Source of the DNA: an uncultured Ignavibacteriales bacterium
GTDB lineage: Bacteria > Zixibacteria > MSB-5A5 > GN15 > JAAZOE01
DNA: 64,000 nt
Reading direction: 5' to 3'
NCBI GenBank assembly: GCA_964549765.1
Contig: CAZJWR010000002.1
Coordinates: 30,691 to 94,690, forward strand
This document shows positions 2,461 to 4,901 of this stretch, piece after piece (positions within the stretch are counted from its first letter, which is position 1; the number at the start of each line of letters is the position of its first letter). The position numbers and the translations under genes are program-made. Below the pieces are notes generated by a model, which searched no databases, was not told the DNA's origin, and saw only the letters and a list, made by a program, of their open reading frames with translations.

Positions 2461-2640
2461 CCTCTTTTTCGGAAGCCGCCGGCCGCGCCGACTCTATCTC
2501 TATAAACCGCTGGCCGGCAGGGCAGTTCCCCCCCAAATTCCCGATCGTGTCCGGATTGAATTTTGCGAATTTCCCCGCCCGCCTCGAAAACGCGGATCAG
2601 CCCGGGACGACCGATGCCGCCGCCCACCGGCAGGTTCTTC

Positions 2641-2669
2641 TTGACATATCCGGCGGGGACGATTATTAT
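2641..2669 (+). promoter_or_regulatory. near-consensus sigma70 promoter for the oxidoreductase/Cys-peptide operon
   Basis: TTGACA (2641-2646), a 17-nt spacer, then TATTAT (2664-2669). It lies about 80 nt upstream of the ATG at 2751. Confidence 0.55.
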
Positions 2670-2750
2670 GTTACTTCAGGACTGGGGATTCAGGCATCAT
2701 TCGGCATCACCGGCATCAGTCCCGGACACATATCTACAAGGAGAGACCTC

Positions 2751-3335
2751 ATGGCTACGCGTGCGTTCTCCGTCAAGGAAGGCGTCATGTACATCCTGGT
2801 CGGCGGGGTGGTTTTGTTTTTCGCCGTGTTTCTCGGCATCCGCACCGGCTTTGCCATTCGCGGCGGCGGCGGCGAACCCGGCGAACTCACCCCGGAAAAC
2901 CTGCCCAATCGAACGATATTGAAACTGGGCGATCCCTTTCCGGCGCTTCCGGTCAAATCGCCCGACGCCAATACCCTGCAAATCTCCGACATCACCGGCG
3001 GAAAACCGACCGTCTTCGCCTTCGTGCTGCCCGGATGCGATCCGTGCAAAAACATGCTGACCAAGTGGCGGGCGAACGGCATCGTCAACGATGACAAAGG
3101 CGTTCATATCGTGTTATTGGCCGCCAGTCAGCCCGATGAACTAAATGCGGGACCCCTCGCGGAATTCGAAGGCGATTATCCGATCTATTTTGTCGATATG
3201 GAGCAGCTGGGCGAGCAGTGCGGTATTTCCAGCTTCCCCAGCGTCGTGGGCGTCAAAGCGGATGAAACGATCGGCTTTGTCGCCAACGCCTACGTTTATC
3301 GTCTCGATACGGCATTTTTTAAAAAATATCTGTAA
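2751..3335 (+). CDS. membrane-anchored TlpA/ResA-like thiol:disulfide oxidoreductase (CDPC motif)
   Basis: It lies inside ORF 2547..3335. The start was set at ATG 2751 because AAGGAGAG lies upstream and the promoter lies inside the longer ORF. There is one N-terminal TM helix (YILVGGVVLFFAVFLGIRTGFAI). The thioredoxin fold has VLPGCDPCK and a cis-Pro loop SSFPSVVG. Confidence 0.75.
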   Translation: MATRAFSVKEGVMYILVGGVVLFFAVFLGIRTGFAIRGGGGEPGELTPENLPNRTILKLGDPFPALPVKSPDANTLQISDITGGKPTVFAFVLPGCDPCKNMLTKWRANGIVNDDKGVHIVLLAASQPDELNAGPLAEFEGDYPIYFVDMEQLGEQCGISSFPSVVGVKADETIGFVANAYVYRLDTAFFKKYL

Positions 3336-3415
3336 AGGAGAAGCCCCTTTTCCATTTTCGGAATTGGATAAGGGCGATCCGAATTCAAACCATTCATCAA
3401 GGAGGATGTTGTCCC

Positions 3416-3697
3416 ATGAAGAAACTCACCATCTATGGAAGCCTGTTTCTCTTCGTATTCGGGCTCTCGGCCGGCCTGGTGGTTACCATGCCCGGCCAGG
3501 CACAGGCCTATCAGCTGTGTACGCTTGAATGCGTGGGCCAGTATTATTGCAATACCCACAAAACCGGGGAGTTGTGCACCAGCCCGAAAATGCCCTATTA
3601 CAAGTATTGGGTCGCGACATGCGTTGGGGGACCGCTCAATTGCCCGCCCACTCACTGGGTCGGTTGTTGCCCCAAACTTATTCCGATTGAACCGTAA
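3416..3697 (+). CDS. small Sec-exported cysteine-rich peptide (8 Cys in a 62-aa predicted mature part), family unknown
   Basis: 93 aa with AGGAGG 9 nt upstream. The signal peptide is MKKLTIYGSLFLFVFGLSAGLVVTMPGQAQA|YQ. The mature part is YQLCTLECVGQYYCNTHKTGELCTSPKMPYYKYWVATCVGGPLNCPPTHWVGCCPKLIPIEP. Confidence 0.7.
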   Translation: MKKLTIYGSLFLFVFGLSAGLVVTMPGQAQAYQLCTLECVGQYYCNTHKTGELCTSPKMPYYKYWVATCVGGPLNCPPTHWVGCCPKLIPIEP

Positions 3698-3775
3698 TTA
3701 CGCGATATAAATCGTCGCCCATCCGGGCCCTTCCGGGTGCGCGGCGTAATTGTCACGGCACGGGGAGGCATCGAT

Positions 3776-4348
3776 ATGGCATCGACGAAATTTCCCATCA
3801 AAAGGGCCGTCATGATCATTGTTGTCGGCGGGATCATTCTGTTTCTGGCTGTATTTGTCGGCATCCAGATCGGCTATGCCCTGAAAGGCGGCGACCGGAC
3901 ATCTGCGACGGAAGCGATATCGTCCGGCACGCCGTCGCCCGGCGACCCAGTTCCCTCGCTGAAACTGTTTACCGAAGACGGGCGGCCGTCGAACCTGCGC
4001 GAAATCGTGTCGGGGGGAGATGCGCTCATCGCTTTCACTATGTCCGGATGCAGCTCCTGCTCGGATCTATTGTCCGGATGGAAAGCAGACGGTATCCTTG
4101 ACCGGCGGGAAGGAAGGCGAATATTCGTCGTCGTCGCGACGCCGCCCGGCGATTTTGACGCCGGGGAGCTGGCCCCTTATGCTTCATACTGTCCCATGTA
4201 TTTCTGCGATAACGCCGACCTTTATGTAGATCTGGATGTACATGGTTTGCCGGCGGTCCTCGGTGTGACCGGGGACGGCGCCGTGAGTTTTTTCAGCGAT
4301 GACGCCGAATCAATTCGCGATACGACCTATCTCGTGCGTCATCGGTAA
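3776..4348 (+). CDS. membrane-anchored TlpA/ResA-like thiol:disulfide oxidoreductase, paralog (CSSC motif)
   Basis: The start at ATG 3776 has GGGGAGG 7 nt upstream. The TM anchor IVVGGIILFLAVFVGIQIGYALKGG is nearly superimposable on that of 2751..3335. The fold has TMSGCSSCS and a cis-Pro loop HGLPAVLGV. Confidence 0.75.
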   Translation: MASTKFPIKRAVMIIVVGGIILFLAVFVGIQIGYALKGGDRTSATEAISSGTPSPGDPVPSLKLFTEDGRPSNLREIVSGGDALIAFTMSGCSSCSDLLSGWKADGILDRREGRRIFVVVATPPGDFDAGELAPYASYCPMYFCDNADLYVDLDVHGLPAVLGVTGDGAVSFFSDDAESIRDTTYLVRHR

Positions 4349-4430
4349 TCGATCTGCCTGCCGGACATTCGGCCGACAGGGGAGGGGATGTAATCTCAAT
4401 CGTATCCAATCCATGGAAGGAGGTGATTTT

Positions 4431-4736
4431 ATGAAGAAAGCGATCATTCTTGCCTCGACCTTTCTGGTCGTGTTCGGCCTGACGCTCGGCATCGTTCTGT
4501 CCCTGAACGAGGGCGCCAATGCCCTCAATCTGTGTGTCTGGGAATGTGCATTCAAGACCACATGGACAACCTATACCGGCCCGGAATGCCCCGGAACCTG
4601 TCCTTCGAGTATGATCTATAAAATTACCCGAAGGTCCACCTGTGTGTCCGGCCCGCTCAACTGTCCGTATGTCAATGAAGTCATCGGTTGTTGGGACGGC
4701 GTCGATCAATTCGGCTGCCTCTTGGGACGGCATTAA
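4431..4736 (+). CDS. small Sec-exported cysteine-rich peptide, paralog (8 Cys in a 70-aa predicted mature part)
   Basis: The start at ATG 4431 has GGAAGGAGGTG upstream. The signal peptide is MKKAIILASTFLVVFGLTLGIVLSLNEGANA|LN. The mature part is LNLCVWECAF...STCVSGPLNCPYVNEVIGCWDGVDQFGCLLGRH. It shares LCxxEC, TCVxGPLNCP and GC blocks with 3416..3697. Confidence 0.7.
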   Translation: MKKAIILASTFLVVFGLTLGIVLSLNEGANALNLCVWECAFKTTWTTYTGPECPGTCPSSMIYKITRRSTCVSGPLNCPYVNEVIGCWDGVDQFGCLLGRH

Positions 4737-4750
4737 TTTTTTATCTGTCT

Positions 4751-4784
4751 CGGCCCGGACTTCGTCCGGGCCGATCATTTTGGG
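4751..4784 (+). terminator. hairpin terminator after the second Cys-peptide gene
   Basis: The stem CGGCCCGGA-CTTCG-TCCGGGCCG is followed by ATCATTTTGG. The T tract is interrupted. Confidence 0.5.
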
Positions 4785-4874
4785 GTACTTACCCTTATAG
4801 GACGCGCCTCCAAGTTGTACCAAGATTCCCGGTGAAATTTCGGTCGGCAATCGGGATATTTTGCACCTTCCCGC

Positions 4875-4901
4875 TAAATAGCTTAACATATTTGCCGATT
4901 T
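4875..4901 (+). promoter_or_regulatory. sigma28 (FliA)-type promoter upstream of motAB
   Basis: TAAA (4875-4878), 15 nt, then GCCGATTT (4894-4901). This matches the TAAA-N15-GCCGATAA class consensus and lies about 50 nt upstream of the motA ATG. Confidence 0.6.

Follow-up and report, generated by a model that had tools for sequence, protein, structure and literature searches.

The oxidoreductases BdbA and BdbB, with sublancin 168, are one case of accessory enzymes that accompany a peptide. A similar case is PedC, an operon-encoded thiol-disulfide oxidoreductase that is needed for the correct disulfides of the secreted peptide pediocin PA-1 (PMC4919988). In the MauD/MauE system, a membrane-anchored thioredoxin-fold protein with a CxxC motif serves a small exported polypeptide with multiple disulfides (six in MauA). 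MauE acts as the DsbB-like oxidant: the MauE proteins of one Calditrichota and one Thermodesulfobacteriota species replace DsbB in E. coli via a CXC site, and MauE was proposed to act through a thioredoxin-fold partner such as MauD (bioRxiv 10.64898/2026.03.05.709764). Here we describe a locus that invites comparison with these systems, in a stretch of 64,000 nucleotides (nt) from an uncultured member of the candidate phylum Zixibacteria (assembly GCA_964549765.1, contig CAZJWR010000002.1, positions 30,691 to 94,690), hereafter the window. The locus encodes two membrane-anchored thioredoxin-fold proteins, T1 and T2, and two cysteine-rich peptide precursors, P1 and P2. We read it as a module that is complete in itself and serves the oxidative folding of exported mini-proteins, which form a diversifying library, and put the probability of this reading at about 70%.

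All positions below are coordinates of the window, unless a contig of the genome (C..) or a fetched locus (L..) is named. The features of the locus are the following.

2641 to 2669, + strand: promoter-like site of the sigma-70 type (TTGACA-17-TATTAT), 11 of 12 consensus matches, 82 nt 5′ of the T1 ATG
2751 to 3335, + strand: T1, membrane-anchored thioredoxin-fold oxidoreductase of 194 amino acids (aa), with an N-terminal transmembrane (TM) segment, PGCDPC, a cis-Pro and a C-terminal FFKKYL
3416 to 3697, + strand: P1 precursor, 93 aa; predicted signal peptide 3416-3508 (MKK...AQA), mature 62-aa peptide with 8 Cys 3509-3694
3776 to 4348, + strand: T2, membrane-anchored thioredoxin-fold oxidoreductase, paralog of T1, 190 aa, active site SGCSSC
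4431 to 4736, + strand: P2 precursor, 101 aa; predicted signal peptide 4431-4523 (MKK...ANA), mature 70-aa peptide with 8 Cys 4524-4733
4750 to 4774, + strand: intrinsic-terminator-like hairpin after P2 and before motA, 11-bp stem with 9 GC pairs, followed by the T-rich tail TCATTTTGGG

Because a near-consensus promoter lies 5′ of T1 and a strong terminator 3′ of P2, the interval 2641-4774 looks like a single operon made of a duplicated two-gene module, in which each peptide gene sits 3′ of a thioredoxin-fold gene (T1 then P1, T2 then P2). The promoter-like site falls within a long GTG-started open reading frame (ORF; 2547-3335) that is spurious. Ribosome-binding sites are strong (GGAGGA 8 nt 5′ of P1, GGAGGTG 5′ of P2), the true start of P2 is the ATG at 4431 (MKKAIIL...) and not the longer start of its ORF at 4299, and the third-position GC content (GC3) in frame is 0.65-0.69 for all four genes. 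The same four genes are found in the same order on a 2.3-kb contig from another sample (L007). Measured against this contig, the ratio of nonsynonymous to synonymous substitution rates (dN/dS) was 0.20 for mature P1, 0.24 for mature P2, 0.20 for T2 (63% identical to its L007 ortholog) and 0.14 for T1. All four are real genes. The preliminary description of this DNA covered 3416-4736, an interval that also holds T2, and omitted the partner genes T1 and T2.

The likeness to the Mau system lies in the genetic pairing of a membrane-anchored CxxC thioredoxin-fold protein with a putative small exported substrate, in the presence of MauE in the genome and in weak matches of T1 and T2 to MauD. The Zixibacteria locus, however, is without mauA, mauB and mauE, and its MauD scores are far under the cut-off (12.4 and 11.2 bits for T1 and T2 with the equivalog model TIGR02661, cut-off 188.6 bits). 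Its putative substrates are free-standing, tandemly expanding peptides, with no enzyme subunit and no quinone cofactor. Pediocin-type systems, for their part, are Gram-positive and have double-glycine leaders, ATP-binding cassette (ABC) transporters, immunity genes and cationic peptides with two disulfides. MauD/MauE with MauA and PedC with pediocin are the closest parallels of the module, which qualifies as a member of neither.

P1 and P2 share 45% identity over 80 residues (BLASTP, E 9e-16), a likeness far above chance. Counted from AQA-Y (AQA-YQLC), mature P1 has Cys at 4, 8, 14, 23, 38, 45, 53 and 54; counted from ANA-L (ANA-LNLC), mature P2 has them at 4, 8, 22, 26, 40, 47, 56 and 65. These positions match the preliminary description exactly, and the conserved blocks that it listed, xxLCxxEC, TCV(G/S)GPLNCP with a 7-residue Cys spacing and (V/I)GC, are all present in both peptides, as is the noted lack of a CxxCH motif and of a double-glycine leader. 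Its proposal of a new family with a shared Cys framework holds up in the homologs, where the framework is kept while loops and tails vary. The disulfide scaffold it envisaged is likewise supported, by even Cys counts, by gains and losses that compensate each other in pairs, and by the linkage of a thioredoxin-fold gene to the peptide arrays.

The framework statistics cover 101 non-redundant family members; the alignment used for Pfam scans and AlphaFold holds 31 members. The mature part contains an even number of Cys in 93 of the 101 (binomial p = 2e-19). Two positions of the framework, which we number CI to CVIII, are invariant, namely CIV (101/101) and CVII (98/98). Members without CIII are also without CVIII (19/19, Fisher p = 3e-9), and a Cys in the C-terminal tail is found in 33 of 42 members that have lost CVIII vs. 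5 of 59 that have kept it (p = 3e-13). Eight members with four Cys retain exactly CIII, CIV, CVII and CVIII. In P2, the CIII and CVIII positions are both Trp, and its two new cysteines, Cys26 and Cys65, presumably form a replacement pair. From these patterns we infer a core disulfide CIV-CVII, a pairing of CIII with CVIII or with a tail Cys, and, as a module of their own, disulfides that join CI and CII to CV and CVI. Outside the cysteines, conservation is concentrated in T-G-P-x-C-x-(N)-P-x-x-P-Y-Y-x-Y and (F/W)-(V/I)-G-C. The mature family is composed of 12.7% Cys, 11.3% Pro, 9.7% Gly, 8.6% Tyr and 2.6% Trp. Net charge is mostly -1 to -7, with P1 (+1) and P2 (0) at the upper end; since they are mostly anionic, these are not classical cationic membrane-active peptides.

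AlphaFold2 models built from the 31-sequence alignment had a mean predicted local distance difference test score of 78.3 for P1 (strands 10-15, 30-36 and 48-54) and 74.7 for P2 (strands 10-15, 32-38 and 51-57). The topology is the same in both models: three strands form a sheet, and the tail is disordered. They contain no helix, and the fold is therefore not of the CS-alpha/beta type. Foldseek searches of the PDB returned only unrelated proteins (E no better than 3.2 with P1 and 2.5 with P2), and neither Foldseek against the PDB nor Pfam gave a structural or profile match to knottin, defensin, CBM1 or hevein-type folds. The comparison with knottin, defensin and bacteriocin folds suggested earlier thus yielded no significant Foldseek or PDB profile match. 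A new mini-protein fold is probable, and no more than that because the confidence of the models is moderate. The sole alignment of the family profile with PDB sequences was to the laterosporulin-type bacteriocin 6LWZ, whose six Cys align with CI, CII, CIV, CV, CVI and CVII, together with a YY; the E value of 2.9 is not significant. Laterosporulin is cationic and from a Gram-positive source, and Foldseek does not recover it; we rejected homology to it, which remains a lead only. A CBM1- or hevein-like carbohydrate-binding module was also set aside, with neither Pfam nor Foldseek in its support; there is a resemblance to 'NPYY' of CBM1.

Scanning all 1.84 billion representatives with HMMER gave 58 clusters at E ≤ 1e-3, one of which (P0054) is a spurious repeat protein; the other 57 matches are 61-118 aa long. 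In a set of 5.8 billion proteins, 13 match, and all three names given by the sources are 'hypothetical protein'. Members of the family were found at E ≤ 1e-5 in 21 of 285 genomes of the phylum, including 11 of the 14 from the window's own family, and all 21 belong to one order. By these sequence searches, the peptides occur in a single order of Zixibacteria only. P1 and P2 are matched by no model of Pfam or NCBIfam, and a Pfam scan of the 31 aligned members gave sub-threshold matches only. The Pfam family DUF6520 was considered and rejected: its best score, 20.1 bits for one 4-Cys paralog, came mostly from the leader and lies under the cut-off of 25.4, and none of 41 genomes scored above it. 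A PADLOC scan of P1, P2, T1 and T2 gave no match, and a role in anti-phage defence was rejected on this ground.

The link between the two gene types extends well beyond the window. T homologs were present at about 20 of the fetched loci, spread over three families of the order, and at every one of these 1-8 peptide genes lie 3′ of T on the same strand. At the orthologous site in one family (f1), the order is urocanase (- strand), T, a variable number of peptide genes, motA and motB, and the neighbours at related loci are urocanase, amidohydrolase, LptE and motAB. Other families have other neighbours, and motAB is therefore not part of the unit; a functional link to motAB was rejected, the synteny being seen only in family f1, with a terminator in between, and families f3 and f4 having other neighbours. 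Among the fetched loci, we saw no transporter, protease, radical SAM, YcaO, LanM-type, immunity or lysis genes near the modules.

T1 and T2 are 32% identical (E 1e-38). The CxxC pair (C96 and C99) and the cis-Pro (P163) are invariant in 19 members of the T family, which have an N-terminal TM segment with a conserved GxxxG motif. This architecture, an N-terminal anchor followed by a thioredoxin fold with CxxC and cis-Pro, is that of TlpA, ResA, CcmG (DsbE), StoA and Etrx, and the best PDB sequence relatives come from the same group: the 19-member profile matches pneumococcal Etrx, ResA, StoA and CcmG at E 3e-9 to 2e-4. The T proteins differ from this group in falling under all curated cut-offs (T1 scores 21.9 vs. 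26 bits with AhpC-TSA, 18.2 vs. 26.6 with Redoxin and 22 vs. 170 with the NCBIfam ResA model, and T2 lower still), in their family-specific C-terminal FFxKYL and in their constant pairing with peptide genes. They are also without sporulation partners, and no cytochrome c maturation or Sco/Cox genes were found near them in the window or at the loci of relatives.

Outside Zixibacteria, the T relatives found are from Actinomycetota, at 28-34% identity (hhalign probability 98%, E 8e-14 for the homolog at L053). At L053 and L054, the T relative lies directly 3′ of a MauE gene (CxCFG) and beside an 8-Cys precursor, an ABC exporter and an S26 peptidase; at L052, an 8-Cys peptide is the only one of these confirmed beside the T relative. 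These loci, from Hamadaea (L052), Micromonospora (L053) and an uncultured member of Actinomycetota (L054), have a non-Sec leader (...RLGDRMLGLL...AGAC), a PGCGPC thioredoxin and a homolog of S26 signal peptidase. Clusters of this mauE/mauD kind have been flagged, not characterised, by decRiPPter as candidate families of ribosomally synthesised peptides with post-translational modifications (RiPPs) (Kloosterman et al. 2020, PMC7794033). They resemble the Zixibacteria module in having a homologous thioredoxin beside a Cys-rich precursor (at least 8 Cys), but theirs comes with a non-Sec leader, an ABC exporter, its own peptidase and an adjacent MauE, whereas the Zixibacteria module consists of thioredoxin and Sec signal peptides only, and the peptide sequences are unrelated.

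The redox context of the genome, which is 97% complete, bears on what T1 and T2 might do. DsbB, VKOR and DsbA-type domains (PF01323, PF13462) were looked for and not found in it, control genomes being positive as expected. DsbD is present, and so is one MauE (85 bits, motif ECGCF, CGC-F; C19:30623-31012, equivalent to L056 1480-1938), encoded directly 3′ of a gene for a membrane-anchored rhodanese-domain protein (L056 899-1483) on another contig than the module. Since the genome is without DsbA, DsbB and VKOR, MauE is its only candidate disulfide generator. Together with the MauE findings in E. coli and the Actinomycetota loci, these gene contents make it plausible that T1 and T2 act oxidatively, in the manner of MauD; the alternative would be a reductase or isomerase that is fed by DsbD.

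In the leaders of P1 and P2, an initial MKK precedes a hydrophobic stretch that is about 20 residues long. The signal peptides proposed in the preliminary description find support across the family, with a charged n-region, an h-region, Ala at -1 in 101/101 members and Ala or Val at -3 in 98/101, as for Sec export and signal peptidase I. No lipobox Cys at +1 was seen in the sequences read. The leader is more conserved (2.23 bits per position) than the mature part without its Cys columns (1.65), and its standout residues F11, F15, G16 and G20 make up a GxxxG motif. The P1 leader (3446-3484, LFLxVFGLxxG) resembles the TM segment of T1 (2817-2855, LFxAVFLGIRxG), and both have GxxxG. Homology between the two is unsupported, hhalign aligning FLxV-FGLxxG with FLAVFLGIRxG at a probability of 1.5%. 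The family is like a RiPP family in its conserved leader, variable core and adjacent modifying enzyme, a thioredoxin heading every array. It is unlike one in that the leader resembles an ordinary Sec signal, and neither a leader peptidase or exporter nor a modification beyond disulfides is part of the picture.

Within arrays (L044, L045, L047 and L048), the synonymous divergence (dS) of the leader is several-fold below that of the mature part, for example 0.31 vs. 1.17, or 0.22 vs. saturation. The difference suggests that the 5′ part is subject to gene conversion or constrained at the nucleotide level. Diversifying selection on the loops, as raised at the outset, is not seen between orthologs (dN/dS 0.20-0.24), nor was positive selection seen for paralogs (0.08-0.4, with dS near saturation). 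The runs that contain the sequence are salt-marsh metagenomes. Contigs of two other salt-marsh runs (X1 and X5) share a P2 haplotype with five changes in 25 nt (4513-4537), at the end of the leader and the start of the mature part: G28D, N30N (synonymous), N33Y, L34Q and V36A, i.e. four of five nonsynonymous. The assemblies of runs X2 and X3 break within P2, with no contig across about 4470/4585 to 4757.

A profile search of the genome itself revealed three more paralogs of the peptides, on contigs C6, C9 and C14, plus weaker relatives.

C6:97158-97415, - strand: peptide paralog (L003), 85 aa, 8 Cys, no adjacent thioredoxin gene
C9:7244-7591, + strand: peptide paralog (L004), 115 aa, about 9 or 10 Cys, no adjacent thioredoxin gene
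C14:40058-40309, - strand: peptide paralog (L005), 83 aa, 4 Cys, no adjacent thioredoxin gene

Some array copies are decaying: one at L047 (1793-2020) is truncated to 75 aa and stops after CV, and two in another genome (G005:C46 18716-18985 and 19078-19353) are also truncated or carry in-frame stop codons. A quick tree showed P1-type and P2-type clades common to several genera, and recent genus-specific duplications as well. By these sequence comparisons, the family undergoes birth-and-death evolution, through tandem duplication and loss. Conotoxin superfamilies and prochlorosin precursors combine a conserved leader with a variable core, multigene expansion and a promiscuous maturation catalyst. 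The evolutionary pattern here looks similar, with conserved leader and Cys framework, variable loops and a leader dS below core dS, but there is no homology, and no positive selection was detected between Zixibacteria orthologs.

Elsewhere in the genome, C121 encodes a second, only very distantly related pair, in which a thioredoxin with TM anchor and CxxC (340-930, - strand) is joined by a Cys-rich exported peptide (1-283, - strand). Two Cys-rich ORFs of 64-66 aa with a leader similar to that of the peptide family are found at C50:237-431 (+) and C33:13229-13429 (-), and a further TM-anchored thioredoxin at C61:8629-9201 (-). The theme of a thioredoxin with a Cys-rich exported peptide may be broader in this genome. 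In the window, the neighbours of the module are tRNA genes, a zinc-ribbon gene and motAB. Genes for tRNA-Val(CAC) and tRNA-Met(CAT) lie directly 5′ of it (2236-2417, - strand); since related genera have urocanase upstream, this genome has a rearranged 5′ flank.

The mechanism we propose is as follows. T1 and T2 would be membrane-anchored, periplasm-facing thiol-disulfide oxidoreductases, and P1 and P2 Sec-exported precursors. Signal peptidase I would cut the conserved leader after A-x-A, releasing a mini-protein of 62-70 aa, predicted to be a beta sheet of three strands that four disulfides hold in place. T would be dedicated to catalysing the formation or shuffling of these bonds at the translocon exit, a private catalyst being needed because the lineage is without DsbA, DsbB and VKOR. 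The likely final electron acceptor would be the genome's DsbB-like MauE. Tandem duplication and loss would set the number of peptide genes at 1-8 per thioredoxin, keeping the leader, the Cys framework and TGPxC-x-NPxxPYYxY while loops and C-terminal tails diverge. The sequence data show that the genes are real, that the peptides form a family, that they are linked to T, and how the framework cysteines are distributed. Export, cleavage, disulfide state and the enzyme-substrate relation of T and P are what we infer from the data above; the oxidant and the biological role, as a library of extracytoplasmic ligands for binding or antagonism, are speculative. LptE and PorV-like genes nearby indicate a diderm context. 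As Sec is the only export route evident in such a cell, the peptides may remain periplasmic or at the surface, or may leave by another route.

Several points weigh against this reading. Most members of the T family have the thioredoxin-like active site CGPC, and the nearest solved relatives of T (ResA, StoA, CcmG and Etrx) are reductases; the redox direction may be either. MauE is non-adjacent to the module and occurs in 60 of 61 relatives, with peptides or not, which makes its co-occurrence with the peptides uninformative. Peptide paralogs without an adjacent thioredoxin exist (L003-L005 and L035-L038), and L003-L005 would therefore need T1, T2 or another enzyme in trans. The disulfide map reflects statistics of Cys presence and absence and not the geometry of the models, and the long hydrophobic region, of about 20 residues, could make the leader an uncleaved signal anchor. 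A search for RNA runs holding the stretch found none. No outer-membrane route, immunity gene or exporter gene is evident at the fetched loci, and a bacteriocin role is without direct support because the peptides are mostly anionic.

As to what such an exported mini-protein might do, one possibility, which we regard as tentative, is that the mature peptides are Sec-dependent bacteriocin-like toxins against competitors and the arrays an arsenal that diversifies in an arms race. That the arrays consist of tandem paralogs, diverged but with the leader conserved, would fit, as would the four nonsynonymous and one synonymous changes within 25 nt of P2 in the strain haplotype and the laterosporulin-type entry as the sole, non-significant PDB sequence match (E 2.9). 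Thioredoxin-like accessory proteins also occur in bacteriocin operons, PedC being an example (PMC4919988). On the other hand, the P1/P2 family has no significant sequence or structural similarity to a known bacteriocin, no immunity/export operon and mostly no cationic peptides, as class II bacteriocins would; lysis genes are not present either, nor is an outer-membrane secretion route evident. A net charge of mostly -1 to -7, an ortholog dN/dS of about 0.2 in place of positive selection, and the lack of a match in PADLOC or to a Pfam bacteriocin family argue in the same direction.

More doubtful is a role in the periplasm or on the cell surface, where the peptides would bind polysaccharide or peptidoglycan, or inhibit proteases or lysozyme, with the Tyr-rich strand as the binding face. 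The conserved PYYxY strand and the aromatic-rich composition (Y 8.6%, W 2.6%, with P 11%) speak for it, a small disulfide-pinned beta sheet is found in many carbohydrate-binding modules and inhibitors, and the module offers Sec export with no further secretion genes seen. However, there is no Pfam match to carbohydrate-binding-module or inhibitor families and no Foldseek match, and the need for 1-8 diverged copies would be left unexplained.

A bolder extension of the oxidative-folding module, which we consider unlikely, makes the unusually conserved signal peptide a recognition leader that acts within the membrane. It would dock on the GxxxG TM segment of the thioredoxin, and this single MauE-driven enzyme would then oxidatively fold a hypervariable library of mini-proteins on their way out of the translocon.

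Quite unlikely in our view is that the peptides act in the periplasm through reactive thiols or by binding metal, for example as carriers or buffers of Cu, Zn or Fe, with cysteines kept reduced by a DsbD-fed TlpA-type reductase, comparable to TlpA with ScoI and CoxB. The reductases closest to T among solved structures and the frequency of CGPC would both be accounted for in this way, and the presence of DsbD, the habitat in anoxic marsh sediment and the anionic character of the peptides are all compatible with it. The even-Cys rule and the paired gain and loss, however, fit disulfides and not metal sites, conserved His or Met ligands were not seen in the family, 4, 8 and 10 Cys occur on one scaffold, and the AlphaFold2 models put the Cys in and between the strands of a compact sheet.

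Finally, P1 and P2 are short, and a long antisense ORF of 198 aa (4293-4889, - strand) overlies P2 and the terminator, but the notion that they are chance or non-coding ORFs, or that the antisense ORF is the true gene, is almost certainly wrong given about 100 homologs of the same architecture, a dN/dS of about 0.2 in the sense frame vs. 0.86 for the antisense ORF, a GC3 of 0.66-0.68 vs. 0.50, and ribosome-binding sites 5′ of P1 and P2. With these values of dN/dS and GC3, the antisense ORF is not a gene, and its partial conservation in L007 is only a by-product of the sense gene.

If the oxidative-folding reading is true, the locus would bring to light a new family of disulfide-rich mini-proteins, probably with a new small fold, from a candidate phylum without cultured members. 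The role of these peptides could be antagonism, binding or inhibition. Were leader docking also to hold, the module would be a bacterial, Sec-coupled counterpart of the combinatorial libraries of venom-peptide or prochlorosin type, on a mini-protein fold new to the PDB. As a compact two-gene cassette of a thioredoxin and a Sec peptide, it could be tried for the production of multi-disulfide peptides. For the bacteria themselves, it would provide a natural test case of how multi-disulfide proteins are made without DsbA and DsbB, tied to the newly proposed MauE pathway.

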